Below, one piece after another: positions 21,867 through 40,771 of a stretch of DNA of 64,000 nucleotides. The notes under the pieces were generated by a model that did no database searches, was not told the origin of the DNA, and was given only the letters and a program-made list of their open reading frames with translations. Origin of the DNA: Coraliomargaritaceae bacterium (GTDB lineage: Bacteria; Verrucomicrobiota; Verrucomicrobiia; Opitutales; Coraliomargaritaceae); contig CBFHKU010000001.1 in the NCBI GenBank assembly GCA_965656495.1, positions 242,781-306,780 on the forward strand, written 5' to 3'. The translations under genes were made by a program, and so were the position numbers. Each line of letters opens with the position of its first letter. Positions within the stretch are counted from its first letter, which is position 1.

Positions 21867-21901
21867 AGAGCATTATACACTTAACTAAGGAGAAAAATAT
21901 T

Positions 21902-22180
21902 ATGGCTAAACAAGCAATAGGAATGATCGAATGCAAAGGCCTCATCTGTCTGATGGAAGCTGCAGACGCTGCCCTCAAGGCCGCAGACGTATCCATGACC
22001 GGCTGGGAAAAAATCGGCTCGGGACTGGTAACCGGTTTCTTTACCGGTGATGTCGCCGCCGTCAAAGCCGCCATCGAGGCAGGTGCTGAATCCGCCGGAC
22101 AAATCGGTGAAGTCGTTGCAGTGCAGGTAATCCCGCGCCCCCACGACGACCTCGGTAAACTCGGTTCCTGGATCGGGTAA
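21902..22180 (+). CDS. BMC-H shell hexamer
   Basis: AIGMIECKG, ADAALKAA, GDVAAVKAA, VIPRPH. Confidence 0.96.
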   Translation: MAKQAIGMIECKGLICLMEAADAALKAADVSMTGWEKIGSGLVTGFFTGDVAAVKAAIEAGAESAGQIGEVVAVQVIPRPHDDLGKLGSWIG

Positions 22181-22217
22181 ATCCCCGTTCCCGCCCGCCC
22201 GGACGCAACTCCCCCGT

Positions 22218-23399
22218 ATGAAAATCCTCGTCGCCAACCTCGGTTCGACCTCCTTCAAATACCGTCTCTTTGAAATGGGAGCATCCTCTGCGGAACTCCT
22301 CGCGAAGGGCGGTTATGAACGCGTCACCGAATACGCGCCCTGCATTGAGAAAATGCTGGATTCCCTCATCGGGCACGGACACCTCGCCTCCGGCGAGGAT
22401 CTCGACGCGGTCGGTTTCAAGACCGTGCTCGGGAAAGATCTGAGTGGTTGCGTGGAAGCCGATGACGCTGTACTCGAGGCGCTCGCAGGCTTCAAGGAAG
22501 TCGCTCCGGCGCACAACCCCGCCTATGCGGAGGGGATCCGTTGTTTCGAGCAACGACTCCCCGGAGTCAAACGGGTGGCGCTCTTTGAGACCGCCTTTTA
22601 TCAATGGCTGGAACCCGCCAATTACAACTATGCCATTCCCGCCGCCTGGCGTGAACTCGGCATCCGGCGTTACGGTTTTCACGGTGCCAGCCATAAATTC
22701 ATCGCGGAGCGCAGTGCCGAATTGCTCGAGCGCGAAGACGTCGCCCAGCGGGTGCGCGGCCTTTACCAAAACGGCCCCGGCGATTTTAACGCCAAAGCCC
22801 ACCGCGTTATCTCATGCCATTTGGGCGGCAGCAGTTCCGTTACCGGCATCCGCGACGGCGTTGCCATCGGCACCAGTATGGGCTTCAGCCCGCAAAGCGG
22901 ACTGCCCCAAAACAACCGCGTCGGGGATCTCGATTCCATGGCAATTCCCTACGCTACAAAAATGCTCGGCATTTCCGTGGAAGAAGCGGAACGCCAACTC
23001 AACAAAGAGAGCGGGCTCCTCGGACTCTCCGGGGTCAGCAACGATTCCCGCGACATTGAGGCCGCTGCCGCCGAGGGCAATTCCGATGCCATCCTCGCGC
23101 AGGATGTCCTCATCGAAAGCATCCGTCACTGGGCCGGTGCCTTCTTCTTTAAAATGGGTGGCGCAGACGCCATCAGCTTTACCGCCGGGATTGGCGAAAA
23201 CAGCCCCGAGCTGCGCACCGCGATTTGCGCCGGCCTCGAAAGTTTCGGGGTGCGCCTCGACGCCCGCGCCAATGGAGCCGCCGTTCACGGCACCGAGGCC
23301 ATCATCTCTGCCCCCGATTCCAAAATCAAAATCCTCGTGATCCCCGCCAACGAAGAACTCGTCATCGCGCGCGAAGTCTACCGCTTTCTCGATCAATAG
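22218..23399 (+). CDS. ackA: Acetate/lactate kinase family protein
   Basis: ILVANLGSTSFKY, APAHNP, RRYGFHGASH, TAGIGEN, NEELVIA. Confidence 0.93.
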   Translation: MKILVANLGSTSFKYRLFEMGASSAELLAKGGYERVTEYAPCIEKMLDSLIGHGHLASGEDLDAVGFKTVLGKDLSGCVEADDAVLEALAGFKEVAPAHNPAYAEGIRCFEQRLPGVKRVALFETAFYQWLEPANYNYAIPAAWRELGIRRYGFHGASHKFIAERSAELLEREDVAQRVRGLYQNGPGDFNAKAHRVISCHLGGSSSVTGIRDGVAIGTSMGFSPQSGLPQNNRVGDLDSMAIPYATKMLGISVEEAERQLNKESGLLGLSGVSNDSRDIEAAAAEGNSDAILAQDVLIESIRHWAGAFFFKMGGADAISFTAGIGENSPELRTAICAGLESFGVRLDARANGAAVHGTEAIISAPDSKIKILVIPANEELVIAREVYRFLDQ

Positions 23400-23458
23400 T
23401 ATCCAATTTCCAAATACATAATCCACTAACCGAATTAATATCCAACCCAACAAATAAC

Positions 23459-23764
23459 ATGGCAAAACAAGCAATCGGAATCCTCGAAACCAAAGGTCTC
23501 GTTGCCCTCGTGCAAGGCACGGATGCAATGCTCAAGGCCGCTAATGTCGAACTCGCTGGCCCCATGAAGGGCGTCGGCAGCGCTCTCGTAAGCGCCACCA
23601 TCACCGGCGACGTCGCCGCGGTTAACGCCGCGATCGAAGCCGGCTCCGACACCGCCGGACAATACGGTGAAGTCGTCAGCGCGCACGTTATCGCACGTCC
23701 CCACGACGATATCACCGCGATTACACCTGCCAAGGCTGCTCCCGCAAAACGGGCCGCCAAGTAA
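23459..23764 (+). CDS. BMC-H shell hexamer
   Basis: AIGILETKG, DAMLKAANV, HVIARPH; start re-placed at 23459. Confidence 0.95.
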   Translation: MAKQAIGILETKGLVALVQGTDAMLKAANVELAGPMKGVGSALVSATITGDVAAVNAAIEAGSDTAGQYGEVVSAHVIARPHDDITAITPAKAAPAKRAAK

Positions 23765-23768
23765 TCCG

Positions 23769-24083
23769 ATGTATCTCGGAAAAGTCATCGGCTCGGTGGT
23801 CGCCACCAAAAAGGACGCGAGCATGAAGGGGCGCAAGCTCCTCATGTTGCGCCCCATGCTGGTCGATCCCGACAAACCCGGGCAATTCAAGCCGGGCAAC
23901 AACACCATTGTGGCGGTCGATACCCTCGGTGCAGGGGAGGGCGAGCTCGTGATGTTCGCCCAAGGCAGTTCCGCGCGGCAGGCCGATGGCCTCAAGGCCC
24001 TCCCGGTCGATGCTGCCATTGTGGGACTGGTCGATTCCGTCGATATCCTCGGTAAAAACACCTATCAGGCAAAAAACAGTTAA
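23769..24083 (+). CDS. BMC-P vertex protein (EutN/CcmL)
   Basis: MYLGKVIGSVVATKK, VAVDTLGAGEGE, GSSAR, DAAIVGLVD. Confidence 0.95.
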   Translation: MYLGKVIGSVVATKKDASMKGRKLLMLRPMLVDPDKPGQFKPGNNTIVAVDTLGAGEGELVMFAQGSSARQADGLKALPVDAAIVGLVDSVDILGKNTYQAKNS

Positions 24084-24098
24084 TCCCCACCTCTCTCC

Positions 24099-25565
24099 AT
24101 GAGCCAAATCAACGAAGCCGCGATTCGCAACGTCGTCACTGAAGTCCTCGCCCAACTCCAGACCGGGCAAGCCACTGTCGCGACCGCTCCGCCTCCCGCC
24201 AAGGGTCCATCCATCAAGGCGCGCCCCGGGCGCCATGGCGTCTTTGAGGACGCCGCTTCCGCCGCTGCTGCCGCCCGTTCCGGTTACGAACAGCTCAGCA
24301 AAAAAGGCTGGGCAGCTCGCGCCAAAGTCGTCGATATCGTGAAGCAAATGTGCGCCGATAATGCCGACCGTTGGGGTAAAATCGAATTCGAGGAAACCCA
24401 AATCGGGCGCCTCGATCATAAAATCGCCAAGCTTCACGGCATCAAAAACGTCCTCGGAGTCGAATACCTCACGCCCTACGGCATGAGCGGTGACGCCGGT
24501 ATCACGATGGACGATTCCGCTCCCTGGGGCGTCGTCGGGAGCATCACGCCCGTCACCCATTCCGTCCCTACTTTGGCGGGCAACATCGTCAACATTGTCG
24601 CCGCCGGTAACGCCGTCGTCTTCAACCCCCATCCGGGTGGCGCGGCTTGTGCCGCAGTTGCGACCCACGAATTTAACGAAGCCATCAAGGCGGCCCTCGG
24701 CATCGAAAACCTCGTCACCACCGTCGAGAAGCCTTCCCTCGATTCCTTTAACGAGCTCTGCGCCTCGGAGGATGTCGACCTCCTCGTCATCACCGGTGGT
24801 CCCGGCGTGGTCGATGCCGCTATGAAGACCGGTAAACGCGCGATCTGCGCCGGCCCGGGTAACCCTCCGGTGGTGGTCGACGATTGCCACGCCCTCGATT
24901 TCAATAAAGTCGCAAAAGACATCATCCTCGGTGGCGGCTTTGACAACAACCTCCTCTGCATCGGTGAAAAGCAAATCATCGCAGTCGGTGATTCCTACAA
25001 AAAGACCCTCGACGCCCTCAAGCGCGAAGGCGCGGTTCTCCTCACCAAGCAACAGGCTCAGGCGATTCAAAAGGAAGTCTTTGATACCAAGGAAGGCGCG
25101 GGCGGTTGCTCGCACGCCGTCCTCAACCGCAAATACGTCGGTGCCGACGCCGCCACCCTCGCCGCAATCGCCGGCCTCAAAATCGATCCCAAGACCGAAA
25201 TGCTCATCGCAGAAACCGGCGCGGACGACCTCTTCGTCGAAGAGGAGCAAATGATGCCGCTCCTGCCCATCATTCACGCCGGGTGCTTCCCCGAGGCAGT
25301 CCGCATCGCGAAGGCTTCCGAGCACGGCTACAAACACTCCGCCATGGTGCATACCATGAACGTCTCCAATATGACCTACATGGCGCAGGCGATGGACACG
25401 ACCCTCTTTGTGAAGAACGGTCCCTGTGTCGCCGGTCTCGGAATGGGCGGCGAAGGCTATATCAGCTTCTCCATCGCCACCACCACCGGCGAGGGCATCA
25501 CCACTCCCCGCACCTTCACCCGTTACCGCCGCTGCACCCTCGTTGATCAGCTCAACCTTTTCTAA
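24099..25565 (+). CDS. Acylating aldehyde dehydrogenase (EutE/PduP)
   Basis: N-terminal encapsulation peptide; TGGPGVV, AGPGNPP, FDNNLLC, TTGEG. Confidence 0.95.
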   Translation: MSQINEAAIRNVVTEVLAQLQTGQATVATAPPPAKGPSIKARPGRHGVFEDAASAAAAARSGYEQLSKKGWAARAKVVDIVKQMCADNADRWGKIEFEETQIGRLDHKIAKLHGIKNVLGVEYLTPYGMSGDAGITMDDSAPWGVVGSITPVTHSVPTLAGNIVNIVAAGNAVVFNPHPGGAACAAVATHEFNEAIKAALGIENLVTTVEKPSLDSFNELCASEDVDLLVITGGPGVVDAAMKTGKRAICAGPGNPPVVVDDCHALDFNKVAKDIILGGGFDNNLLCIGEKQIIAVGDSYKKTLDALKREGAVLLTKQQAQAIQKEVFDTKEGAGGCSHAVLNRKYVGADAATLAAIAGLKIDPKTEMLIAETGADDLFVEEEQMMPLLPIIHAGCFPEAVRIAKASEHGYKHSAMVHTMNVSNMTYMAQAMDTTLFVKNGPCVAGLGMGGEGYISFSIATTTGEGITTPRTFTRYRRCTLVDQLNLF

Positions 25566-25571
25566 TAATCC

Positions 25572-25832
25572 ATGATTCTCGCCCGCATCGACGGACACGC
25601 TACCGCCAGCGTTGCCCACCCAAGCCTCAAAGGACAAAAAATCGTCCTTTGTACGCCCATTGATGCAGACGGCAAAGCCACCGGTAACCCCATCGCGGCG
25701 CTCGACCCGCTCAGCAGCGGCAAACACAGCCGCGTCTTTATCACCACCGACGGTTCATGGAGCCAAAACACTCTCCACGACGAGACCTCGCCCATCCGCA
25801 ATCAGGTCATCGGCATCATCGACTCACAATGA
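25572..25832 (+). CDS. BMC-P vertex protein
   Basis: MILARIDG, HPSLKGQK, DGS, VIGIID. Confidence 0.9.
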   Translation: MILARIDGHATASVAHPSLKGQKIVLCTPIDADGKATGNPIAALDPLSSGKHSRVFITTDGSWSQNTLHDETSPIRNQVIGIIDSQ

Positions 25833-26122
25833 AACCCGGACGCGTCATCGGAAACGTAACTCTCAGCCAGGCCGCTTCCCAATTCAAGGGCGCGCGCTGG
25901 CTCCTTGTTGCGCCCATGGGCCCCGCCGAGTTGACCGACCAACGCCTCTACGGCAACGAATCCAGCCCGGTGGTCTACGACAAACTCGGCGCGGGGGTGG
26001 GGGACCCGATCCTCTATGTGGAGGGCGCCGAAGCCACTCAACCCTTCGAGGACAATATCCCCCTCGATGCTATCACCGTCGCGCTGGTCGACACCTACGA
26101 TTTTTCTCAACCGGAACTTTAA
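25829..26122 (+). CDS. BMC-P vertex protein
   Basis: GRVIGNVTLS, VVYDKLGAGVG, EGAEA, PLDA; ATGA overlap with the previous gene. Confidence 0.9.
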   Translation: MKPGRVIGNVTLSQAASQFKGARWLLVAPMGPAELTDQRLYGNESSPVVYDKLGAGVGDPILYVEGAEATQPFEDNIPLDAITVALVDTYDFSQPEL

Positions 26123-26146
26123 AACAAACAACTTATATTTAATATT

Positions 26147-27235
26147 ATGAGCAAACTCTACACCGCCAAAGAATTGGAGCGCATGTTGAAAAATGGTGAG
26201 TCCCTCGCCAGCGTTCCTGCCAACGCAAAACTGACGCCGATGGCGCGCGACATCCTGCGCCAGCACCGCAAAAACGGGAAGAGCGCCGCCGCGCCCGCCG
26301 CTGCTGCCCCGCAGGGCCAGAGCCCCCGCATCCACGAACCCGTCCTCCCCGACGCGGAATACAACTGGACCCCCGGCGGCGACCCCAAAAACGCCCGCGA
26401 TCTCGAGAAATTTTTCTATTCCCCTGAAATCCAGGCCATCAAGGAACGCATCTGCCATATCGGTAAACGCATCTGGAACAAAGGCTATGTCGACGGCAAC
26501 GGCGGCAACATCACGGTGCGCGTCGGCGACAACCTCGTCCTTTGTACACCCACCCTTATCTCCAAAGGCTTCATGACCCCCGACGATATCTGCATGGTCG
26601 ATCTCGACGGCAACCAAGTCGCCGGCACCCGTCCGCGCACCTCCGAGGTCAACACCCACCTCGGCATCATGAAAAACGAGCCCAAGGCGAAATCCTGCGT
26701 GCACGCGCACCCCGTTTACGCCACCGCCTTCGCGGTCGCGGGCGTCACCCCGCCGTCCTGCCTCATCCCCGAGCCCGAAGTCTTCCTCGGTGAGATCGGT
26801 TTCGCTTCCTACCAGACCCCCGGCACCCCCGAGAACGCCAAGGAAGTCGGCCAACTCGCCAAAAAACACCAGTCCATCCTCATGCAAAACCACGGCGTCA
26901 TCTGCTGGGGTAAAGATGTCGAAGATGCCTACTGGAAAATGGAAAACACCGACGCCTTCTGCCAAACCGTTTCCATCACCATGCAAATCGGCGGCCCCAA
27001 ACAATACGGCCCCGACAAACTCAAGGAACTCATCGTCCTGCGCAAAAAACTCGGCATGCCCGACCACCGCCTCGACGAGCTCAAAGAATGCGAACTCTGC
27101 GATGCCGCCGATTACACCGTCACCACCGCGCCGCAACCCGCCGCCTGTTCCTGTGAAATGCCCGCCGCAAATGCCCCCGTCGATGAAGCTTTAGTTCAGA
27201 AAATTACTGACATCATCATGGAAAAGTTGAAATAA
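26147..27235 (+). CDS. Class II aldolase (fuculose/rhamnulose-1-phosphate type)
   Basis: GNGGNI, TPT, SKG, TSE, HAHP, NHG; C-terminal encapsulation peptide. Confidence 0.93.
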
Positions 27236-27263
27236 TAAGGATTCCTTCAACGAAAAACGCTTT

Positions 27264-28259
27264 ATGAAAAAAGATCCAATTCGAGTCGCAGTCACAGGCG
27301 CCGCCGGTAACATCGGTTACGCCCTCCTTTTCCGCATCGCGTCCGGCGCGATGTTCGGCCCCGACCAACCGGTCGCCCTCAATCTCATCGAGATTGAGCC
27401 GGGTCTCGCACCCCTCAAGGGCGTCGCCATGGAACTCGACGACTGCGCCTTCCCCCTCCTCACCGAAATCGTCCAGACCGCCGACCTCAACGAAGGCTTC
27501 AAGGACGTCGACTGGGCACTCCTCGTTGGATCCGTTCCCCGCAAACAGGGCATGGAACGCGCCGACCTCCTCGGCATCAACGGCAAAGTCTTCGTCGGGC
27601 AGGGCAAGGCCATCAATGACAACGCCAAACCCTCCGTCCGCGTCGTGGTCGTCGGCAACCCCTGCAATACCAATTGCCTCATCGCCATGACCAGCGCCCC
27701 CGATATCCCCAACGAGCAATTCTTCGCGATGACCCGCCTCGACGAAAACCGCGCCAAGACCCAGCTCGCCCAACAAGCCGGCGTCCCCGTCTCCGAGGTC
27801 ACCGAACTCTGCGTCTGGGGCAACCACAGCCCCAGCATGTTCCCCGATTTCTACAACGCCAAAATCGGACGCCAACCCGCCGATAAAGTCATCGGCGACG
27901 AAGCCTGGCTCAAGGAAACCTTTGTCCCCACCGTCGGACAACGCGGCAAGGCCATCATCGACGCCCGAGGCGCTTCCTCTGCCGCCTCCGCCGCCAACGC
28001 GGTGGTCGATACCGTCCGCGACCTCGTCACCCCCACCCGGGGCGGCTTCCATTCCGTCTGCGTCGTCTCCGGCGGTGAATACGACACCCCCGCCGGGATC
28101 ATCACCTCCCTTCCCATCAAAGTCGACGGCGTCGGCAAATGGCGCGTTGTCGAAGGGCTCCAGCTCAACGACTACGCCAAGGCCCAGATCAAAGCCTCCA
28201 ACGACGAACTCCTCGAAGAGCGCAAACTCGCCTTCGGCCAGCTCGGACTTCAGGTTTAA
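27264..28259 (+). CDS. mdh: Malate dehydrogenase (type 2)
   Basis: [50 protein letters not shown]. Confidence 0.95.
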
Positions 28260-28267
28260 AGGGTTCA

Positions 28268-29112
28268 AAAGTGGGAAAGTATGAAAGTGGGAAAGTAGTT
28301 TCCCCTTCGTGCGATCCGTGCCATTCGTAGTTTTTTCACCACTGAGGCTGCGGAGTTGAACGTTGTTAGTTGGAAGTTGAACCACCCGCCGTGAAAGCGA
28401 CAATCCTGTCGCTTTTCAACCCAAGCCGCACCAGCCGTGGAAGCGACAATCCTGTCGCTTTTCAACCCAAGCCGTACAACCAAAGCGACAAGAGTGTCGC
28501 TTCCACGAGATACAAGCCATTCGTGCCTATTCGTGTCCATTCGTGGTTCCAACCAACAACCCCCTCAACGTTCAATGTTCGATGTTCAACGTTCGGAGTT
28601 CTTCAACCTTCCCACCTTCATACCTTCCCACCATTTAATATTCGTGCGATCCGTGCCATTCGTAGTTTTTTCACCACTGAGGCTATGGAGTTGAACGTTG
28701 TTAGTTGAACCAACCGCCGTGGAAGCGACAATCCTGTCGCTTTTCAACCCAAGCCGCACCAGTCGTGGAAGCGACAATCCTGTCGCTTTTCAACCCAAGC
28801 CGCACCAGTCGTGGAAGCGACACTCCTGTCGCTTTTCAGCAACAAGCCGTACCAGTCGTGGAAGCGACACTCCTGTCGCTTTTCAACCCAAGCCGTACAA
28901 CCAAAGCGACAAGAGTGTCGCTTCCACGAGAGACAACCCTTTGCTCATTAAGAGTAAGAATAAGATTAGGATTAAGAGTGTGGAGTTGAATATTGTTAGT
29001 TGAATGTTGGAAGCCCCCGCCCTCAAAGTTCAATGTTCAAAGTTCGATGTTCGATGTTTCCACACCTTCATACCTTTCCACCTTCATACCTTCCCACCTA
29101 TACGCTTTCCCG
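28268..29112. repeat. Composite repeat array: REP/REPIN palindromes plus 6-10 bp tandem motifs
   Basis: Multiple GTGGAAGCGACAATCCTGTCGCTTTT copies, inverted partners AAAGCGACAAGAGTGTCGCTTCCAC, and TTCCCACC/TTCATACC, ATTCGTG, TGTTCAA, TAAGAT units. Confidence 0.92.
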
Positions 29113-29161
29113 CCTCTAAATCCCAGCTACCGCCTCCTGAAAAGAGCCAGCGCGAAAAGGA

Positions 29162-29347
29162 TTAAAGAAGCTCCGGCTTTTTCGCCCGCTTCTTAGGTCT
29201 GCGCCGCTGTGATGGAGAGTGAAATTCTTCCCTGATCTTTTTAAAAACTGGGTCGTCGGGGTCTGCAAGCCGCATAGATTTGAACCCGTGACGAGGTGCG
29301 GCCTCCATCAAAGCTTCATTAATTCTAGCTCTTTCTCTTTTGGTCAT
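29162..29347 (-). CDS. Putative antitoxin partner of the BrnT-like toxin
   Basis: 61 aa; overlaps the toxin 3' end; paralog at 51519-51704. Confidence 0.7.
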   Translation of the reverse strand: MTKRERARINEALMEAAPRHGFKSMRLADPDDPVFKKIREEFHSPSQRRRPKKRAKKPELL

Positions 29348-29627
29348 ACTGCTCTTTAAGTTTGCTGTCTTCTCTAACGCTTATCAATCGAATTCTTTTT
29401 TCATGGTAAGCAAAAATAACTAGTAGAAACATACCCCGATTACTCTTTCCATACAAGCCATAACGCCTCGGCCCTTTACCATCCTTCGCTATAACATTCA
29501 TCGCGTTTTTATCACAAAAAACCGACATTGCCGCACTGAAGGGCGGCCTTCCCATTGAAACATTCCGATCGGACTTCCACTTGCTCCAAATAAACCGTCC
29601 GGAAATAACATCCTTGCGTTTGTCCAT
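29325..29627 (-). CDS. BrnT (DUF497)-like toxin
   Basis: FIWSKWKSDRN...F..A..VF.D...RIRLISVR pattern; paralog at 51682-51984. Confidence 0.75.
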   Translation of the reverse strand: MDKRKDVISGRFIWSKWKSDRNVSMGRPPFSAAMSVFCDKNAMNVIAKDGKGPRRYGLYGKSNRGMFLLVIFAYHEKRIRLISVREDSKLKEQYDQKRKS

Positions 29628-29636
29628 CGTTTAAAA

Positions 29637-30127
29637 AGCCCTGAGGTCTGGCACCGCTAGGACACAAAGGGATGGGGCCAGCCTAGCTGGCGACCGCTGA
29701 TTTGCGCTGACTCACGCTGATACATTTTTATAAGCGTCTATCAGCGCCCATTAGCGGTTTCCGGCTCTGCCGGACTCAGGGCAGCACGCAAGCCATCCCT
29801 ATCCGTGTAATCTGTGTTATTCGTAGTTGCCTTCATCCGTGCGTATTCGTGCCCATTCGTGGTTCCCTCGAATCCCACAGCAAAGAGCCCAGCCCCACCT
29901 ATCCGCTGTGCTTCTCCCGGGACCTTAGCGTCTATCAGCCCCCATCATCGGTTTCCGGCACTGCCGGACTCAGGGCAGCACGCAAGCCATCCCTATTCAT
30001 GCCATTCGCTTCATTCGGAGTTCTTCAACCTTCCCACCTTCCCACCTTCATACCTTCCCACCTTCCCACCTTCCCACCTTGATACCTTCCCACCTTCCCA
30101 CTTTCCCACCTTGATACCTTCCCACCT
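29637..30127. repeat. 70-bp direct repeat with an inverted partial copy, then a TTCCCACC array
   Basis: 29733-29802 nearly equals 29927-29996; 8-mer tandem array at about 30028-30127. Confidence 0.85.
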
Positions 30128-30149
30128 CTAAATCCCCCTTCCCGGAATA

Positions 30150-30166
30150 TTGGCACGCTTTAGGCT
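30150..30166 (+). promoter_or_regulatory. Sigma54 (-24/-12) promoter
   Basis: TTGGCACGCTTTAGGCT, GG-N10-GC spacing. Confidence 0.65.
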
Positions 30167-30176
30167 ACTTCATGCC

Positions 30177-30255
30177 ACGTAACTTCACTTACCATAGTAG
30201 AGTTGCAGTTTTGCTTACGGGCTTGCGGGACTGGTTCCTGCAAGCCCGTTTTTTT
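30177..30255 (+). ncRNA. Candidate sigma54-dependent small RNA (about 80 nt)
   Basis: Bounded by the sigma54 promoter and a 14-bp hairpin + T7; no ATG downstream of the predicted start site. Confidence 0.5.
30217..30255 (+). terminator. Rho-independent terminator
   Basis: ACGGGCTTGCGGGA-ctggt-TCCTGCAAGCCCGT followed by a T-run. Confidence 0.85.
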
Positions 30256-30336
30256 ACCGGTATCGCCGTTAAAAATACACAAAATATACGCTTTGGGTTG
30301 ACCGCTCCCTTTTTGTAGTGAAATTATGTTCACCTA

Positions 30337-30651
30337 ATGGAGTATTATCAACACCAAGCCCGCGAACACGATTTGCCCTTTCGCAGCGACGGCGACGCCC
30401 TCAACCTCCTCGAGGAACAACGCGCCGCCCTCGCATGCCTGCACGACGCCGTCCAACGCTGCCAATACGAAGACATGCGCACCCGCCCCGTCCTCGCCGC
30501 CCTCGATTTCCTCGCCACCAGCCTCCCCAGCGGACGCGGCGCCGACGCCGCCCTCCAGCATTTCCGCCAGGCCCTCGCCCTCGCACACCCCCAACAACGC
30601 GCCCAGACCCTCCAACACGCCTACCGCTCCATCGAACTCGCCGCGGAGTGA
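30337..30651 (+). CDS. Hypothetical helical protein
   Basis: 104 aa ORF with strongly C-ending codons; TTGACC upstream. Confidence 0.7.
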   Translation: MEYYQHQAREHDLPFRSDGDALNLLEEQRAALACLHDAVQRCQYEDMRTRPVLAALDFLATSLPSGRGADAALQHFRQALALAHPQQRAQTLQHAYRSIELAAE

Positions 30652-30740
30652 AGGGGGGATCGGTATTCTGGGCCCGCAGCTCTAGCGGTATGAATGTTCC
30701 TATGTGGAATCTTGGTTCCTGATTGTATGATGATAATTAA

Positions 30741-30768
30741 TTGGGTAATAAATTCCATTATGTTAAAT
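30741..30768. other. dif-like XerC/XerD recombination site
   Basis: TTGGGTAATAA-ATTCCA-TTATGTTAAAT; right arm equals the E. coli XerD arm; 11-6-11 layout; lies at the skew switch. Confidence 0.65.
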
Positions 30769-31149
30769 ATAATTTTGATCTTAATTTGTCTCCTCGTCGG
30801 CTGTGTCGGTACGCCGGAACCATTAGGCGAAACCAATAATACTGCAGCTCCGGGAATTGTGCAGATAAATATCCGGACTGGAGTAACAAACAAGATTCGG
30901 GTCCTTCAAAATTTAGGCAGTCCCAATTTTGTGGAATTCGACCCTTTCAGGGAGTGGTCAGTTTGGGTTTATCTGATCGAAGCACAGATCAGCGAGAGTC
31001 CTACCAAACCGGGCTATTGGACGATTTTAATGCCCAAGAAAACAGCACCCCCGTCCGCCACGGAAACTATATTCAAAACAAAGAAGTTATATATCAGCAT
31101 CAGTGATCATAATGTCGTTAAAGAAATCAGTTATCTCGAGTTCGATTAA
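30760..31149 (+). CDS. Putative lipoprotein (SmpA/BamE-like), AT-rich
   Basis: Lipobox LVGC; G.T..RVLQNLGSP...W.Y pattern; start uncertain because it overlaps the dif-like site. Confidence 0.55.
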   Translation: MLNIILILICLLVGCVGTPEPLGETNNTAAPGIVQINIRTGVTNKIRVLQNLGSPNFVEFDPFREWSVWVYLIEAQISESPTKPGYWTILMPKKTAPPSATETIFKTKKLYISISDHNVVKEISYLEFD

Positions 31150-31208
31150 GCATTGCTTCCAACACGCCAACCGCTCCATCGAACTCGCGGGGGGAGTGAA
31201 GTAGGTTG

Positions 31209-31784
31209 TTACCCTTTAACAATGCCGCGGTCGAGGAGTTCGAAGTAGCAGCGGGCGCAGGCTTGGACGTCGTTCATGGCGTCGTGGGCGCCGTCGAAGT
31301 CGGTATCAAATAGTTTTTGGTGGAGCTCGGAAAGTTTGGGCCATTTGTATCCGTAGTTGCCGGGGATGGCGCAGTAATCGGTGGCGATTTCTTTGGTGCA
31401 ACAGTGGGCGGGTTTGTTGCGGGATTTGAGTCCGGCGCGGAGGCATTCGGCGCCGAGGACGGGGTAGTCGTAGCTGAGGTTGTGGGCGATGAGTTGGGTG
31501 CTGCGCTCGATTTGTTCGAGGAATCCTTGGAGGGCGTCTTGGATGGGGATGCCTTCGGCGATGGATTTTTCCTGGGAGAAGCCGTGTTCGATCCAGAAGG
31601 GTTCGGTGGGAATTTCCCAGCCGTCGGGTTGGATGAGGTCGACTTGTTGGGCGAGGCAGTTGCGGTCTGCGTCGTAGTAGGCCCAGGCGAGTTGAATGAC
31701 GCGGGGCCAGTTGTCGAGGTCGGCGAGGGGGGCTTCGTAGCGTTTGGGGAGTCCGGTGGTCTCGGTGTCGAAGATGAGATACAT
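31209..31784 (-). CDS. DEDDh 3'-5' exonuclease (DnaQ-like)
   Basis: FDTETTGLP, IAHN..YD, KWPKLSELH, AHDAMNDV; alternative start 31814. Confidence 0.92.
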   Translation of the reverse strand: MYLIFDTETTGLPKRYEAPLADLDNWPRVIQLAWAYYDADRNCLAQQVDLIQPDGWEIPTEPFWIEHGFSQEKSIAEGIPIQDALQGFLEQIERSTQLIAHNLSYDYPVLGAECLRAGLKSRNKPAHCCTKEIATDYCAIPGNYGYKWPKLSELHQKLFDTDFDGAHDAMNDVQACARCYFELLDRGIVKG

Positions 31785-31857
31785 ACTTTTATGGGGAATT
31801 GGGTTCCGCGCCATAAAAGTTAATAATGATTCATAAATAAAGTTAATTTGAGAGAGG

Positions 31858-32415
31858 AATAATGGTGGGAAGGTTGAAGAACTTCGAACGTTGAACATCG
31901 AACTTTGAACGTTGAGGGGTTGTTGGTTGGAACCACGAATGGACACGAATAGACACGAATGGGGTTTTAGGGTCACTGACTTGTTGCCATGTGCCCGGCA
32001 TAGCCGGGAACCACTAATCTTCACTAATTTACACTAATGGGGAAGGCGTAGAGGTGGGAAAGTATGAAGGTGGGAAAGTATGAAGGTGGGAAAGTGGGAA
32101 GGTATGAAGGTGGTAAGGTTGGGGAACTTTGAACGTTGAGGAGGTTGTTGGTTGGAACCACGAAATACACGAAAAGCACGAATGGGAGTGGGAGAACTAA
32201 CAACCTGCAACTAACAACATTCAACTCCACACTCTTACTCTTAGGAAGAAAAGGGTTGTATTACGTGGAAGCGGCAATCCTGCCGCTTTGCTTGTTGCTG
32301 AAAAGCGACAGGAGTGTCGCTTCCACGGCTGGTTGCTCGAAAGCGACAGGATTGTCGCTTCCACGGCGGGTGCGGCTTGGGGAGGAACCACGAAATACAC
32401 GAAAGGCACGAATGG
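31858..32415. repeat. Composite repeat array, reverse orientation relative to 28.3-29.1 kb
   Basis: GGTGGGAA/GTATGAA, CACGAAT, TTGAAC, AAAGCGACAGGAGTGTCGCTTCCAC. Confidence 0.9.
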
Positions 32416-32429
32416 GAGGGGGGATTGTT

Positions 32430-35400
32430 TTACTGGGTGGTTTTGCTGGGGTGGAACCAGGGGAAGAGGGCGGGTAGGACGAGGAGGGTGAGGAGGGTGG
32501 AGCTGAGGAGTCCGCCGGTCACGACGAGGGCGAGGGGGCGTTGGACTTCGCTGCCGGCGCCGTGGGCGAGGAGGAGGGGGAGGAGGCCGAGTCCGGTGGT
32601 GAGGGCGGTCATGAGGACGGGGCGGAGTCGTCGGGTGGCGGCTTCGATGGCGGCTTGGGCGGGTGGATCGCCGTCTTGTATGCGTTGGCGGGTGGTGGTG
32701 ATGAGGACGAGTCCGTTGCCGAGGGCGATGCCGAAGAGTGCGATGAATCCGACGGTGGCGGGGACGGAGAGGTTTTCTCCGGAGAGGTAGAGGGCGGCGA
32801 TGCCGCCGACGAGGGCGAGTGGGATGTTGAGTAGGATGAGGAGGCTGTGGCGGAGGGAGCCGAGGGCGGTATATATCATGATGAGGATGAGGAGGAGGGT
32901 AAGGGGGATGACGAGGGCGAAGCGTTGGTTGGCTTCTTGTTGGAGTTTATAGGTGCCGCCCCAGGTGGTGAGGGTTCCGGGGGGGAGTTGGACTTGTTGT
33001 TCGATGGCGTTTTCGGCTTCGGCGACGAAGCTGCCGATGTCGCGTCCGGAAACGTTGGCTTGAATGGCGATGAAGCGTTGGCTGTGTTCGCGGGTGATTT
33101 GGCGTGGGCCGACGAGGGTTTTGAGGGTGGCGATTTCGTTGAGTGGGACGAGGGCGCCTTGGGGGCTACGGATGAGGGTTTGGCTGATGGCTTCTGGGTT
33201 GTTGCGGTATTGTGGGGGGTAGCGGACGAGGATGTCGAAGCGTCGGATGCCTTCAAAGATGAGTCCGGCGCGGGTACCGCCGATGCCGGTTTGAATGACG
33301 TTTTGGATGTCGGCGACGTTGAGGTTGTAACGTGCGGCGGCGGCGCGGTCGATTTGGATGAGGAGTTGTGGGGCGCCGGTGACTTGGTCGACCTGGACAT
33401 CGCGGGCGCCTTCGATTTTGGCGAGGACGGTGGCGATTTGGTTGGCGTTATGGAGGAGGGTGTCGAGGTCTTCGCCGAAGACTTTGAGGGCGAGTTCTGC
33501 TTGGACGCCTTCGAGGAGTTCGTCGACGGACATTTCGATGGGCTGGGTGTAGTTTACGATGACGCCGGGGGGGTGGCCGATGGCTTTGCGGAGGGATTCA
33601 ATCATGGCTTCGGCATCGTAGGGGACGCGCCATTGGGCGGGGGGTGTCATGAGGAGGTAGAGTTCGGCGGCGTTGATGGGGTCGGCGTGGGCACCGATTT
33701 CGCCGCGTCCGATGCGGGTGACGACTTCGTTGACTTCGGGGACTTCGAGGAGGCGTCGCTCGATGGCCTGGGTCATGTGTCGGGAGGTGTCGATGGCGAT
33801 GGAGGGTGCCATCTTGAGTTTGACGACGAGGGTGCCTTCGTTGAGGCGTGGGGTGAATTCGGTGCCGAGGCGTGGGATGAGGGTGAGTCCGAGGGCGAGG
33901 ATGAGGAGGGCGGCGAGGCTGGTGAGGCGGGGGCGTGCGACGAAGGTTGCGAGGATTCGGCGGTAGGCGTTTTGGAGGCGGGGCGGGCGCGGGTTGGGGT
34001 GGTTTTTGTTTTTTGGGGGCCGCATGCAGGCATGGGCGATGACGGGGCTGATGAGGAGGGCGTAGAGGAGGGCGCCGGTCATGGCGAGGGCGATGGCGTA
34101 AGCGAGGGGGCGGAAGGTTTTGCCTTCGACTCCGGTGAGGGTGAAGAGGGGGAGGAAGACGAGGATGATGATGGCGACTGCGAAGCCGACGGGTCGGGCG
34201 ACTTGGACGCAGGCTTGGATGACGGAATCGGTGCGGGGGTTGTTGGGCTTGGCGCGGAGGTGCTGGTCGATGTTTTCGGTCATGACGATGGCACCATCGA
34301 CGAGCATGCCGATTGCGATGGCGATTCCACCGAGTGACATGAGGTTGGCGGAGATGCCGAGGTAATGCATTCCGAGGGCGGCAAAGAGGACGGAGAAGGG
34401 GAGGGCGAGGGCGACGACGACGGTGGGTCGCCAACCGCCCATAAAGAGGGTGAGGGTAAATGCCACGAGGGCGATGCCTTGAATGAGGGCATGGGTGACG
34501 GTGCGAATAGCGGCTTCTACGAGGGTTTTTTGCTGGTAGTAGGGGACGATTTGAATGCCTTCGGGGAGGCTTTCGTTAATTTTTTGGATTTTGTCTTCGA
34601 CTGCCTGAATGACGGTGGAGGCGTTGGTGCCGAAGAGTTTGATGACTTGCCCGGCGACGACTTCGCGGATTCCGTTGTGGGATTGTAGGCCGCGGCGGAT
34701 GGCTTGGCCTTCGCGGACGTGTGCGACTTCCCGGATGGTGATGGGGGTGCCGTCGAAGCTGCCGAGGAGGATGGCGCGGAGGTCCTCGATTCCGGTGGCG
34801 AGGCCGATGGAACGGACGACGTATTCTTCGTTGTTTTGTTCGATGTATTGAGCGCCGATGTTGAGGTTGTTGGCTTCGAGGGCGTCGATGACATCGTTGA
34901 CGGTGAGGGCATAGCGTTCGAGGGCGAGGGGGTCGACCTCGATGTGGAATTGTTTTTCGTAGCCGCCGATGCCGAGGACTTCGGTGACGCCGGGGACGTT
35001 TTGGAGGTTGAATTTAATAATCCAATCCTGAATGGAGCGCAGCTCGGTGAGGGAATAGGTGCCGGTGGAGTCCTCGAGGTAATAGAAGAGGACTTGCCCC
35101 ATGCCAGTGGAGATAGGGCCCATTTCGGGTTGTCCGAATCCGGAGGGGATGTTGTCGCGGGCTTCGTTGAGGCGTTCTCCGACGAGTTGGCGACAGAAGT
35201 AGATATCCATGCCGTCTTTGAAGTAGACGTTTACGACCGAGAGCCCGAAGTTTGAAATAGAACGGACGTTCTGGATTCCGGGGAGTCCGTTCATGGCGGT
35301 TTCTACGGGGAAGGTGACGTATTTTTCAATTTCCTCGGGGGCGAGTCCTTCGGTGACGGTGAAGACTTGGACGAGGTTGGGAGAGACGTCGGGGAAGGCG

Positions 35401-35507
35401 TCGACCGGAAGTTTCTTAAAGCTCTGGAACCCGCCGGCGATGATGAGGGCGAGGAGCGTGAAGACGAGGAGGCGTGCCTGAATGCAATATTCGAAGAGTC
35501 GTTTCAT
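32430..35507 (-). CDS. czcA: Heavy-metal RND efflux permease (CzcA/CusA)
   Basis: VDAFPDVS, ANLMSLGG, GMLVDGAIV, GVEGKTFRPLA, RLRPVLMTA, EVQRPLA. Confidence 0.95.
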   Translation of the reverse strand: MKRLFEYCIQARLLVFTLLALIIAGGFQSFKKLPVDAFPDVSPNLVQVFTVTEGLAPEEIEKYVTFPVETAMNGLPGIQNVRSISNFGLSVVNVYFKDGMDIYFCRQLVGERLNEARDNIPSGFGQPEMGPISTGMGQVLFYYLEDSTGTYSLTELRSIQDWIIKFNLQNVPGVTEVLGIGGYEKQFHIEVDPLALERYALTVNDVIDALEANNLNIGAQYIEQNNEEYVVRSIGLATGIEDLRAILLGSFDGTPITIREVAHVREGQAIRRGLQSHNGIREVVAGQVIKLFGTNASTVIQAVEDKIQKINESLPEGIQIVPYYQQKTLVEAAIRTVTHALIQGIALVAFTLTLFMGGWRPTVVVALALPFSVLFAALGMHYLGISANLMSLGGIAIAIGMLVDGAIVMTENIDQHLRAKPNNPRTDSVIQACVQVARPVGFAVAIIILVFLPLFTLTGVEGKTFRPLAYAIALAMTGALLYALLISPVIAHACMRPPKNKNHPNPRPPRLQNAYRRILATFVARPRLTSLAALLILALGLTLIPRLGTEFTPRLNEGTLVVKLKMAPSIAIDTSRHMTQAIERRLLEVPEVNEVVTRIGRGEIGAHADPINAAELYLLMTPPAQWRVPYDAEAMIESLRKAIGHPPGVIVNYTQPIEMSVDELLEGVQAELALKVFGEDLDTLLHNANQIATVLAKIEGARDVQVDQVTGAPQLLIQIDRAAAARYNLNVADIQNVIQTGIGGTRAGLIFEGIRRFDILVRYPPQYRNNPEAISQTLIRSPQGALVPLNEIATLKTLVGPRQITREHSQRFIAIQANVSGRDIGSFVAEAENAIEQQVQLPPGTLTTWGGTYKLQQEANQRFALVIPLTLLLILIMIYTALGSLRHSLLILLNIPLALVGGIAALYLSGENLSVPATVGFIALFGIALGNGLVLITTTRQRIQDGDPPAQAAIEAATRRLRPVLMTALTTGLGLLPLLLAHGAGSEVQRPLALVVTGGLLSSTLLTLLVLPALFPWFHPSKTTQ

Positions 35508-35527
35508 GGATGCTTGGGCGGTTGTTA

Positions 35528-36601
35528 CTAGTGGGCGTGTCCGTCGCCGAAGTTTTCTTTTTGGGCATCGGCTTTAAGAAAGAAACCGCCTTTGGATACG
35601 TAGGATTCGCCGGGTTGAAGGCCGTCGATAATGGCGATGTGATCGGCGTCCTCGGAGCCAATGGTAACGGTGCGGGGTTTGAAGCCTTCGGGGGTTGGGA
35701 CAAAGACAACCTCGTGGTCTTCCATTGTAATGACGCTGACGCGGGAGACCACTACGGGGAAGGTTTCGCGGTCGAGCTTAAGGTTGCCGATAACGAAGAG
35801 GCCGGGGCGGAGGAGTCCTTTTTTATTGGAAACAACGGCGCGGATGAGGCTGGTGCGACTGGTTTCGTCGACGACCGGGCCGAGATAGGAGATTTGCGCC
35901 TCGATCGCGGGGAAGTTGTCTCCGAAGTCGAGGGTAACGGATTGCCCGATACGGACGCGGGGGAGGTCTCGTTGGTAGAGGCGTAAGTCGACCCATACCG
36001 AGGTGGTATCGGCGATGGTGTACATGAGTTCGCCGGCCTCGAAGCTTTCGCCCGGGGTGATGTGGAAATCGGTAATGGTGCCGTCGAGGGTGGCGGTGAG
36101 TTGGAAGGGGCGGAGGCTTTCGTTGCTTTCCATTTCTGCGAGGACTTCGCCGGCTTTGACGGTGTCGCCGAGGCGTTTATGGATGCGTTTGACTATCCCG
36201 GCGAAACGGGGGCTGACGTGAGTGACGGTATTCTCGTTGACGCGGACTTCGCCGGTAAGGAGCAGGTTTTTTTGGATGGAACCGGATTGAGCTACGGCAA
36301 GTTCGATACCAAATTCTTCCTGATCTCGTGGGTCAATCGCATGTGCTTTTGGGTCTTCGTGATCCTGGTCTTCCGGAGCGATGTGATCCAAATCTTCATC
36401 GTGATCGTGATTATGATCGTCATGATCATCGTGCTCATGTTGTTCCGACATTTGTATCGCGGTTGTTTCAGTATTGTTTGCCGGATCGTGGTTGTCCTCT
36501 TGGTTGTGCCTTGCTGGTTTGCAGGCACTCAGAATGAACGGGAATAAGCTAAGAATGATTATGCGAATCGCAAGGGATTGGCTTGGAGCTTTGTTTTTCA
36601 T
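35528..36601 (-). CDS. czcB: RND periplasmic adaptor (CzcB) with His-rich linker
   Basis: Lipobox-like LSAC, HEHDDHDDHNHDH, LRPGLFV, C-terminal GHAH. Confidence 0.9.
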   Translation of the reverse strand: MKNKAPSQSLAIRIIILSLFPFILSACKPARHNQEDNHDPANNTETTAIQMSEQHEHDDHDDHNHDHDEDLDHIAPEDQDHEDPKAHAIDPRDQEEFGIELAVAQSGSIQKNLLLTGEVRVNENTVTHVSPRFAGIVKRIHKRLGDTVKAGEVLAEMESNESLRPFQLTATLDGTITDFHITPGESFEAGELMYTIADTTSVWVDLRLYQRDLPRVRIGQSVTLDFGDNFPAIEAQISYLGPVVDETSRTSLIRAVVSNKKGLLRPGLFVIGNLKLDRETFPVVVSRVSVITMEDHEVVFVPTPEGFKPRTVTIGSEDADHIAIIDGLQPGESYVSKGGFFLKADAQKENFGDGHAH

Positions 36602-36621
36602 GATTTTGACTATGGAAAAGT

Positions 36622-37920
36622 TTATGGGGTATTCGGAAGAGAAGCGGTGAGTTTTAGGATTTCCGTTTGGGCCAGATTGTAATCGCGGAGGGCATTGAGG
36701 TGGCTCTCGCGGAGGTCGAAGAGGGTTTGACGCGCCTCAAGAACGGCGAGTTGGGTGAATTTCCCTTGCTGGTAACCTGCTTCGGTACGGCTGAGGGTTT
36801 CCTTGGCAGCGGGGAGGAGTTCACGGGCGATGGAATGGACCTCGGCGTGAGCGGTGGTGAGGGCTTGATAGGCACGGTTGAGTTGAATGCGCAAGCTGCG
36901 TTGGAGGCGTATCTTTGCTTGTTGGTTGGCATGGCGGAGGGCGGTGGCGCTATGGATATTGCCTTTGTTTTTATCAAAGAGGGGCCAGGGGATTTGAAGG
37001 CCCAGGATGAAGGCGCCGTCACCATCGGCTTCGTTGAAGTAGCGCCCGCCGGCGAAGACTTCGAGGTCGGGAACGGCGCGGGCTTTTTCTAACTGGATGG
37101 CGGCCTCATAGCGGCGATTTTGGGCCTTGAATGCGGCGAGGGAGGGATTTGCGTGGAGCTGGGCGGAGAGGGTTTCATAAGCGGGCAGGTCGGGGCTCAG
37201 AGCAAGCGAACCCACCGGCTCGAAGTTTTCGGATTCGGGTGCCTCGCTCCAGAGGCTGGCGAGTTCGGCTTTGGCGCTCGCATAGGCTCGCTGCGCGGAT
37301 TGCAGGGCAAAGTTTTGTTGTCGCACCGCAAGTTGGGCGCGGGCGGCTTCTACTTGAGGGGAAAGGGCTGCTTTGACGAGGCGTTCGGTTTCGGCGGCGC
37401 TTGCTTTGGCAAGTTGGACTTGTTCCTGACGCAGGGAAAGATCTTTCGCGGCAAGGAGGGCATTGACGAATGCGGCTCGCAGGCGGGCCTCTATTTCAAG
37501 GCGAAGGATTTTGGCCTCCCAGAGGGTTTCGGCGTATTGAGCCTTAGCGAGCTCGACTCGGCGGGGCCGCTTCTTTGCGGTCTCGAGGGTCTGACTCAGA
37601 CTAAGGGTGAATTCCAGAGATTGCACCCCACGCATCGGGCCGCTGCCGAGGAAGTTGCCCAGTTCAGCGGAAATAACGGGGTTGGGCAGACGACCGGCCT
37701 GTTGGATTTGCCCGGCAGCGACCTCGGTTTGGGCGATATTTTCTGCGAGGGCGGGATGCTGGCGCAGGGTGCGCTCCAAAGCGTCGTTGAAGCTGAGTTT
37801 TACCTCAGGAAGGCTTTCTCCGTTAAGGGATAGCGCTAAATAGAATGGGATATATTTGATTAAATAAAAAAAATTCATGTTGAGGCGATTACGAATGAGA
37901 CGAAGCGAGCTTTTATGCAA
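36622..37920 (-). CDS. czcC: TolC-family outer membrane factor (CzcC)
   Basis: RLPNP, PLFDKNKGNI, GYQQGK..L.VLEA; start may be 37878. Confidence 0.9.
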   Translation of the reverse strand: MHKSSLRLIRNRLNMNFFYLIKYIPFYLALSLNGESLPEVKLSFNDALERTLRQHPALAENIAQTEVAAGQIQQAGRLPNPVISAELGNFLGSGPMRGVQSLEFTLSLSQTLETAKKRPRRVELAKAQYAETLWEAKILRLEIEARLRAAFVNALLAAKDLSLRQEQVQLAKASAAETERLVKAALSPQVEAARAQLAVRQQNFALQSAQRAYASAKAELASLWSEAPESENFEPVGSLALSPDLPAYETLSAQLHANPSLAAFKAQNRRYEAAIQLEKARAVPDLEVFAGGRYFNEADGDGAFILGLQIPWPLFDKNKGNIHSATALRHANQQAKIRLQRSLRIQLNRAYQALTTAHAEVHSIARELLPAAKETLSRTEAGYQQGKFTQLAVLEARQTLFDLRESHLNALRDYNLAQTEILKLTASLPNTP

Positions 37921-38410: not shown

Positions 38411-38427
38411 TTGGCACGCCTTAAGCT
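38411..38427 (+). promoter_or_regulatory. Sigma54 promoter of the porin gene
   Basis: TTGGCACGCCTTAAGCT, GG-N10-GC. Confidence 0.7.
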
Positions 38428-39984: not shown

Positions 39985-40770
39985 TTAGTGGTGGGAAAAT
40001 ATGAAGGCGTATAGGTGGGAAAGTATGAAGGTGGGAAAGTGGGAAGGCTGGGGAACTTCGAACATCCAAACTTGAGGGATTGTTAGTTGATGTTTGTTGG
40101 TTGGAACCACGAATAGGCACGAATGAGGAGGGGGGGGACTTCCAACATTCAACTCCACACTCTTAATCTTATTCTTAATCTTAATCTTAATCTTAATAAG
40201 AAAAGGGATGTATCACGTGGAAGCGGCAATCCTGCCGCTTTGCTTGTTGCTGAAAAGCGACAGGAGTGTCGCTTCCACGGCTGGTGCGGCTTGGGTTGAA
40301 AAGCGACAGGAGTGTCGCTTCCACGGCTTGGGTTGATTATTGAACGTTGAGGGGGTTGTTCGTTGTTAGTCGATGGTTGTTGGTTGGAACAACGAATAGG
40401 CACGAATATTAACTGGTGGGAAGGCGTATAGGTGGGAAAGTGGGAAGGTATGAAGGTGGGAAAGTTGGGGTTAATCCTAATCTTAATCTTAATAAGAAAA
40501 GGGATGTGTCTCGTGGAAGCGACACTCTTGTCGCTTTGGTTGTTGCTGAAAAGCGACAGGAGTGTCGCTTCCACGGCTGGTGCGGCTTGGGTTGAAAAGC
40601 GACAGGAGTGTCGCTTCCACGGCTGGGGTTATAAAGCGACAGGATTGTCGCTTCCACGGCTGGTGGTTCAATATCGTGCTTTGAAGGGGAGTGAGAGTAA
40701 GATTAGGATTAAGAATAAGATTAAGAGTAAGAGGGAACTGCCAAAGAACTTCCAACTAACAACTTCCACC
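39985..40770. repeat. Composite repeat array (REP/REPIN plus short tandem motifs)
   Basis: Same motif families as 31.9-32.4 kb, plus (TAATCT)n; between convergent genes. Confidence 0.92.
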
Positions 40771-40771
40771 C

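Follow-up and report, generated by a model that had tools for sequence, protein, structure and literature searches.

The classic small RNA (sRNA) genes with sigma-54 promoters are Qrr1-4 and GlmY, whose activators bind defined upstream sites, and GcvB of enterobacteria is the familiar case of an sRNA whose single-stranded G/U-rich seed pairs, in an Hfq-dependent manner, with transporter mRNAs at their C/A-rich leaders. Repeated stem-loops and processing from a longer RNA characterise NrsZ of Pseudomonas aeruginosa. This sRNA is reported to be regulated by nitrogen and induced via NtrB/C (PMC4253122), and GlnZ is reported as an enterobacterial sRNA released from the glnA 3'UTR under NtrC control (PMC9731577; bioRxiv 10.1101/2022.04.01.486790). 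NtrC-controlled sRNAs, and sRNAs cut from the tails of nitrogen genes, are thus described in Proteobacteria; the sRNA NcS25 is reported to repress a porin induced by nitrogen depletion. In titles and the opening lines of abstracts we found no sigma-54-linked small RNA for Verrucomicrobiota, and no sRNA or UTR element tied to urtA.

The locus described here lies in a window of 64,000 nt, the whole stretch of DNA analysed, which corresponds to G000:C1:242781-306780, G000 being a Coraliomargaritaceae genome of 2.06 Mb (54% G+C, 31 contigs, 99.36% complete); the names borne by homologous proteins likewise point to Opitutales-type Verrucomicrobiota. An initial annotation of this stretch had proposed a free-standing, sigma-54-dependent small RNA near position 30150. 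Our analysis leads us to regard the locus as probably a gene of that kind: a free-standing, sigma-54-dependent and probably nitrogen-regulated sRNA that shares ancestry with an element at the 3' end of urtA. Three things are added to the first reading: the paralogue in the urtA tail, a probable small sigma-54 nitrogen regulon, with the same promoter type at urtA and amtB, and the presence of mdh upstream of the RNA in two relatives.

The letters and the spacing of the promoter proved to be as first annotated: TTGGCACGCTTTAGGCT occupies 30150-30166, with N10 between its GG and GC doublets (Table 1). The extended sigma-54 consensus is TGGCAC-N5-TTGCW; the -24 half of the RNA promoter is a perfect TGGCAC, against which the -12 half reads AGGCT rather than TTGCW. 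The deviant -12 half is found also at urtA (AGGCT) and at a porin-like gene (AAGCT), whose promoter, described initially as almost the same as that of the RNA, agrees with it at 13 of 15 positions. By the usual sigma-54 geometry transcription would start at about 30177, 12 nt past the GC. The segment 30177-30256 is predicted to fold at -36.2 kcal/mol (z = -6.49), a value equalled by none of 200 shuffled sequences. Its terminator hairpin has 14 pairs (nine G-C, one G.U) closed by a 5-nt loop and is followed by six T, or by the seven originally counted if the last stem base is included; this combination of a G+C-rich stem and a U-run, the mark of an intrinsic terminator, is kept in four genomes with compatible changes. 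TGGCAC-N7-GC occurs four times in the 64-kb window where 2.49 are expected, and 22 of 100 shuffles reach four; terminator-like sites between 27 and 33 kb number eight, the shuffle mean being 8.0, and the stem at 30217-30249 is by far the longest of those listed. With the motif count at chance level, the case for an RNA gene rests on comparison across relatives.

Table 1. Features of the RNA locus and of elements related to it. Coordinates are those of the window unless a locus or contig is named.
Feature	Coordinates	Strand	Remarks
Sigma-54-type promoter TGGCACGCTTTAGGCT	30151..30166	+	-24 GG at 30152-30153, -12 GC at 30164-30165; kept in 4 genomes
Variable stretch from -12 element to conserved body	30167..30177	+	11 nt in the window; ATG 30172 lies inside
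sRNA body, ~78 nt (putative)	30178..30255	+	73/78 columns invariant in 4 species-level genomes
5' stem-loop, 10 pairs, loop UACCAU	30179..30206	+	predicted fold; also in the urtA-3' paralogue
Single-stranded G/U-rich linker AGUUUUGCUU, candidate seed	30207..30216	+	unpaired in the predicted fold
Intrinsic terminator	30217..30255	+	hairpin 30217-30249, then T-run to 30255
Conserved block AAAAATACACAAAATATACGCTT and sigma-70-like promoter TTGACC-18-AATTAT (30298-30327)	30266..30327	+	neighbour of the RNA; serves orf104
orf104, orphan 104-aa protein	30337..30651	+	always adjoins the RNA
Sister sigma-54-type promoter TGGCACGCCTTAAGC	38412..38426	+	before porin-like gene 38484-39398; conserved in G001, G005
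Tandem small hydrophobic proteins, 77 + 75 aa	L047:285-793 = G000 C1:132884-133392		no family match
urtA-3' element, G000	L042:1501-1578 = C16:5570-5647		match of covariance model R1 after the urtA stop

The comparison set consisted of seven genomes of the genus, G000 (that of the window) to G006. A 571-nt query around the site has a match in three of the other six, at 79-84% identity; the free-standing RNA is thus present in four of the seven (G000, G001, G002 and G005), and in G003, G004 and G006 neither it nor orf104 was found. When the four are aligned, the promoter is kept as TTGGCAC[G/A]CT[T/C]TAGGCTA, the DNA 5' of this motif is unalignable, and the stretch behind the -12 element keeps almost no column and differs in length, being 11 nt long in G000 and G002 but 10 nt in the other two. 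At 30178 there begins a run of 47 bases without a single difference among the four, followed by the hairpin with its compatible changes and by T6-7. The conserved body starts 11-12 nt past the -12 GC, and its onset would therefore coincide with the start site expected from sigma-54 promoter geometry. Judged from these alignments, conservation at the locus follows promoter, start site and terminator, a pattern that lifts the case above chance. Together with the rpoN gene and the two activators described below, this anatomy-like conservation in four genomes supports the original proposal of a free-standing non-coding RNA gene with a sigma-54-type promoter, and the check on conservation that had been suggested for it came out in its favour, promoter, linker and terminator all being kept in the three other genomes of the genus.

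The same alignment bears on whether the product might instead be a small protein. Two reading frames are indeed available in the window genome, one of 48 aa at 30172..30318 (+) and one of 32 codons that opens with a TTG at 30203. The ATG at 30172, already discounted as a start in the initial annotation, is absent from G001, G002 and G005 and lies within the non-conserved stretch, and a 1-nt indel in the terminator loop shifts any longer frame from one genome to another; since the ATG is not kept and the indel breaks the frames, the RNA is best read as non-coding. The conserved 47 nt, moreover, lack any ATG and hold stop codons, one TAA and two TAG, spread over different frames. We consider a small protein from either frame to be extremely improbable.

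Three metatranscriptomes contain 5-9% of the sampled words of the stretch, and the metatranscriptome contigs that fall on 26001-36000 cover mdh, orf104 (30476-30627, with no differences) and other genes; among the pieces listed, none spans 30178-30255.

The gene upstream of the RNA differs in each of the four genomes that carry it, which matters for a second explanation, that the RNA is just the conserved end of mdh transcripts, tail and terminator, and that the TGGCAC motif is no working promoter. In G002 and G005 mdh does end upstream on the same strand (about 80 and about 355 nt away, respectively), with no obvious terminator between its end and the RNA, so that the hairpin there may also terminate mdh transcripts; the sister element behind urtA, moreover, is itself an mRNA tail. 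The original statement that no co-directional gene ends upstream accordingly stands for G000 and G001 and falls for G002 and G005. In G000, however, a BrnT-like gene on the minus strand and 1.9 kb of repeats lie between mdh and the RNA, and in G001 the neighbour is a 306-aa gene on the opposite strand. Against a mere tail there is also the fact that the motif is kept where its flanks are not and that body conservation begins at the distance from the GC proper to a start site, as well as the recurrence of the same motif before urtA, the porin-like gene and amtB. That the RNA is no more than an mdh tail strikes us as quite improbable.

The DNA on this side of the RNA has a character of its own. 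The BrnT-type toxin ORF (29325-29627, minus strand; Pfam BrnT_toxin, 38 bits) is flanked by repeats and, relative to G002 and G005, represents an insertion between mdh and the RNA. Repeat-packed intergenic DNA occupies 29628-30140 and recurs at 28370-29000, 32136-32300 and 40149-40845; it includes two copies of an element of about 70 nt, at 29700-29800 and 29930-30000, and tandem CCTTCCCA arrays at 30025-30130. Arrays of TTCCCACYTTCCCAC are found at about 30 loci of the genome, and in G002 similar repeats lie upstream of the RNA in reversed orientation. Further upstream, at 21900-27235, the translations point to a microcompartment-like locus of the Planctomycetes/Verrucomicrobia type, with shell proteins, acetate kinase, aldehyde dehydrogenase and a class II aldolase.

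On the downstream side the RNA is always adjoined by orf104, and a third explanation takes the two together: sigma-54 transcripts from 30177 would form a cis-acting leader, whose hairpin would serve as an attenuator of read-through into orf104. The two are always adjacent and co-directional, they occur together in four genomes of the genus and were found in none of the other three, and orf104 is an orphan of equally narrow range, with six relatives (72-98% identity) among 5.8 billion proteins; where its sequence differs from genome to genome, the third codon position is mostly the one affected. Neither orf104 nor the small membrane proteins considered below has a Pfam or NCBIfam match, and the protein atlas holds only 'hypothetical protein' clusters for them. 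Between terminator and start codon, however, orf104 has a conserved sigma-70-like promoter of its own, of the form TTGAC-17/18-TGAATTAT across genomes; the 14-bp G+C-rich stem with U6-7 makes a strong terminator, upstream of which no anti-terminator partner segment is apparent on inspection; and the homologous urtA element is not the leader of anything similar. We hold the leader explanation to be improbable. A functional link between the RNA and orf104 may nevertheless exist, since the two co-occur in the same four genomes and orf104 is as narrowly distributed as the RNA. Just 5' of the orf104 -35 element, at 30266-30297, lies an A-rich block of about 30 nt (AAAAATACACAAAATATACGCTT), almost invariant in the four genomes, which may be an UP element or an operator.

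A covariance model built from the four RNAs, R1, was run over 101 genomes of the family, of which 27 matched at E <= 0.01. The free-standing copies score 104-109 bits with this model, these being the same four sequences from which it was built. When the flanks of 30 matches were inspected, there were, among those listed, four free-standing copies, 21 behind a urtA stop codon, one partial copy at the start of a contig and four unrelated terminators. Within the genus, G000, G001, G003 and G005 each have a second copy, at 56-60 bits. The 21 full urtA copies begin right after the stop codon (...PDVYGEPWLKGTFK*), between urtA and urtB, a position just behind the host gene such as is looked for in sRNAs derived from a 3'UTR. 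The urtA element consists of a 5' hairpin, the linker UAGUUUUGYUUG and a second hairpin with an invariant GGGCUUG/CAAGCCC lower stem. In the genus, the urtA copies share with the window RNA 59 of 97 aligned positions, including the linker AGUUUUGCUU, which is invariant in both paralogues and has UAGUUUUGYUUG as its family-wide form, and the lower stem; they are without the U-run.

The two helices can be followed from one paralogue to the other. Over nine sequences of both, 96.7% of cells pair, against 40-50% when the 3' partners are slid by 1-3 columns. Both sides have changed at four pairs, one in the 5' hairpin (2-29, a G-C pair in the free-standing RNAs but A-U behind urtA) and three in the terminator (40-74, 41-73 and 50-65); helix 1 is 94.3% paired over the nine sequences, and the terminator hairpin 98.3% over 24 distinct family sequences. 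These alignments indicate that both helices are maintained between the paralogues by compensatory changes, and that the free-standing RNA shares ancestry with the urtA mRNA tail. As to direction, we infer that the free-standing copy derived from the urtA tail. The urtA element itself could be a processed 3'UTR sRNA, or else a stabiliser or attenuator within the operon.

In the material covered, the free-standing copy is confined to four closely related genomes. None of 144 genomes of the order from outside the family matches R1 at E <= 0.001. A 21-mer specific to the free-standing copy has no match in the metagenome collection, in which a degenerate core pattern occurs at 31 loci: ten urtA-tail copies, no free-standing copy and otherwise unrelated sequences, as judged by eye from the flanks. 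The initial annotation had not recognised the RNA, and Rfam 15 agrees, with nothing at the gathering threshold for the RNA locus and, at E <= 10, only chance hairpin matches to a microRNA model (19-21 bits against a threshold of 91); the urtA copy likewise belongs to no Rfam family, permissive thresholds yielding only chance hairpin matches.

In G001 and G005 the two paralogues are neighbours. The gene order there is RNA, orf104, an exonuclease gene on the opposite strand, the porin-like gene, a BamE-domain gene, urtA, urtB and urtC, with mdh directly upstream of the RNA in G005 and not in G001; the RNA, the porin-like gene and urtA fall within 4 kb, each with a sigma-54-type motif, and some 3 kb separate the RNA from urtA downstream. 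G000 has its urt operon on another contig than the RNA, and between the exonuclease and porin-like genes there is a cluster of three genes (32430-37920, minus strand) that by the look of its translations is of the heavy-metal RND efflux type; at that site in G001 only a 145-aa C-terminal fragment of a pump remains.

Proximity and homology to urtA raise the possibility that the locus is a decaying, functionless relic of a duplicated urea-transport locus, of which promoter and tail are left. The promoter resembles that of urtA, the RNA and urtA motifs being identical over 18 nt in G005, the body is homologous to the urtA tail, and in G001 and G005 the locus lies some 3 kb from urtA. A relic would drift, however, whereas only five of the 78 columns vary among the four species, against 79-84% identity for the neighbouring DNA, and compensatory changes keep both helices. 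In G002, furthermore, UrtA was not found (the genome is 99% complete), yet the RNA is kept there at full conservation. A relic is on these grounds very improbable.

The machinery that such a promoter would need is encoded in G000, in the form of one rpoN (Sigma54_DBD, 197 bits) and two activators of REC-AAA+-HTH_8 architecture, one of which has TIGR01818 ntrC as its closest model, with a score of 492 bits that falls short of the 558.6 cut-off. The G000 genome contains 208 sites of the form TGGCA[CT]-N7-GC, 20 of them outside every ORF of at least 100 aa. Intergenic sites of this type precede the RNA, the porin-like gene, urtA, amtB-glnK-amtB, mcsA-mcsB-clpC and dnaK. The urtA motif, TTGGCATGGTTTAGGCT, lies 46 nt before the ATG of urtA, whose product scores 482 bits on TIGR03407, just below the cut-off of 492.75; the motif of the amtB-glnK-amtB cluster is TTGGCACGCGGAATGCT, and the genes of the cluster match the Ammonium_transp and P-II families. 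G000, G001 and G005 all have this type of motif in two places, before urtA and before the porin-like gene. The porin-like gene, some of whose homologues carry Porin_4 while one is named 'Porin domain-containing', repeats the arrangement seen at the RNA, with a kept motif, a variable stretch and a conserved leader.

Support for the urtA site extends beyond the genus. Across genera of the family, YTGGCAY-N7-GC stands at a fixed position, 1325-1362 nt ahead of the urtA stop, in 12 of the 18 urtA loci with a full 1500 nt of upstream DNA, where by our own arithmetic about 0.02 per locus would be expected by chance; the -12 half takes the forms AGGCT, CTGCT, ATGCT, GTGCT, CGGCT and CCGC at these sites, with CTGCT, ATGCT and GTGCT among the forms seen in genera other than that of the window. 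The comparative evidence is good for a putative sigma-54 nitrogen regulon that includes the RNA.

Each of the two activators has a DNA-binding domain, though no shared upstream site was found for them to bind. In the 300 nt upstream of 11 promoters no inverted repeat or 8-mer is shared, by a crude enumeration that could miss a degenerate site, and alignments of 260 nt upstream of each promoter class likewise disclose nothing shared; no conserved activator site was found before the promoters of the RNA, the porin-like gene, urtA or amtB. The CCTTCCCA arrays were considered as an enhancer and rejected, as the repeat family to which they belong recurs at about 30 loci, with no preference for these promoters. 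The motifs of the two remaining genes lie at C7:38378-38393 in G000 for mcsA-mcsB-clpC (TTGGCACAGTTGATGCA) and at C2:6985-7000 for dnaK (TTGGCATGGGCATTGCA), the latter oddly placed, only 12 nt from the ATG; they hint that the second activator may serve a protein-quality-control regulon.

The mechanism we envisage is the following. Sigma-54 RNA polymerase would bind the -24/-12 element at 30151-30166, and an NtrC-type activator would open the promoter under nitrogen limitation; transcription would begin near 30177 and end at the 14-bp hairpin and U-run. The RNA, for which comparison shows a fold into the 5' stem-loop, the 10-nt single-stranded G/U-rich linker and the terminator, would act in trans by base pairing, with the linker and the 5' hairpin loop as its contacts and no aid from Hfq, ProQ or CsrA, for none of which is there a match in the G000 genome (99.36% complete).

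A seed-first scan of G000 for complementarity to the RNA yielded one notable site, in the leader of a gene for a 75-aa membrane protein (C1:133165); the long gapped duplexes of the scan are unspecific. In the predicted duplex, RNA bases 11-39 are matched by three leader segments, AAGCAAAACU at 36 nt ahead of the ATG, CAACU, and CUACUAUGG, which spans the start codon, the linker AGUUUUGCUU facing AAGCAAAACU and CCAUAGUAG of the RNA facing CUACUAUGG. The duplex has a predicted energy of -29.8 kcal/mol, which none of 300 shuffled RNAs equals on this target. The target was, however, picked post hoc, and a double 9-mer site somewhere in the genome turns up for 20 of 100 shuffled RNAs as well. For six further leaders, those of the porin-like gene, the BamE-like gene, orf104, mdh, urtA and amtB, pairing with the RNA does not surpass that of shuffles (p 0.15-0.85).

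The gene of the 75-aa protein is the second of a tandem pair whose products are 91-100% identical within the genus and whose leader is A/C-rich, with no Shine-Dalgarno-like sequence. The site is conserved in six genomes of the genus. Elsewhere in the family a leader with CAAACAAAAC goes with an RNA that has GUUUUGUUUG, and this amounts to one co-change of seed and site between this genus and two others. The pair is present in 30 of 101 family genomes. Of 19 further genomes with the pair, 16 do not match the RNA model at E <= 0.1, and the matches of the other three look like chance terminators; the A/C-rich leader therefore does not depend on the RNA, and only the one co-change remains. The mRNA of the 75-aa membrane protein may be a target, a weak lead from predicted pairing that we hold to be unlikely rather than likely.

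A bolder account would join these elements into a pair of sibling RNAs: the urtA-tail element was duplicated to give a free-standing gene with the same sigma-54 nitrogen promoter, acquired or kept; the G/U-rich seed common to both would silence mRNAs with A/C-rich leaders, that of the small membrane-protein pair first of all, without Hfq, ProQ or CsrA; and the free-standing copy would add the pairing at the start codon. Taken whole, this account is doubtful. If true, it would document how an sRNA gene was born out of a 3'UTR, and it would give the phylum Verrucomicrobiota its first nitrogen sRNA regulon.

The reading we prefer, that of a free-standing sRNA under sigma-54 and probably nitrogen control, would have consequences of its own. 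It would provide a compact and testable sigma-54 regulon (amtB-glnK, urtA, the porin-like gene and the sRNA) in abundant marine bacteria with small genomes; the clear paralogy between a free-standing sRNA and an mRNA tail would bear on the origin of sRNA genes; and a base-pairing RNA would be at work where a search for known RNA chaperones found none. The RNA family is probably one without earlier description, and probably of an already known type, with no new kind of mechanism.

Each of the described systems shares something with this locus. With Qrr1-4 and GlmY it has in common a -24/-12 promoter, an intrinsic terminator and response-regulator-type activators encoded in the genome; it differs from them in that it has no Rfam match to those families and no conserved upstream site was found. 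As in GcvB, a conserved single-stranded G/U-rich stretch, UAGUUUUGYUUG, is present, and the sole target lead has an A/C-rich leader; the two are not homologous, however, the pairing here is predicted, and no Hfq, ProQ or CsrA was found. NrsZ is closer in its setting: both are free-standing sRNAs within a nitrogen two-component/sigma-54 circuit and beside nitrogen assimilation genes, induction of the window RNA being presumed from its promoter. The window RNA, on the other hand, belongs to another phylum, consists of a single short unit of about 78 nt and matches no Rfam sRNA family.

GlnZ offers a parallel that involves both paralogues. The window copy differs from it in having its own promoter and in not lying within a 3'UTR in G000. 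The urtA copy differs in its host, urtA rather than glnA, in being followed by the urtB cistron and in its want of a U-run; yet, like GlnZ, it is a conserved element directly behind the stop codon of a nitrogen gene, one that here has a sigma-54-type promoter.
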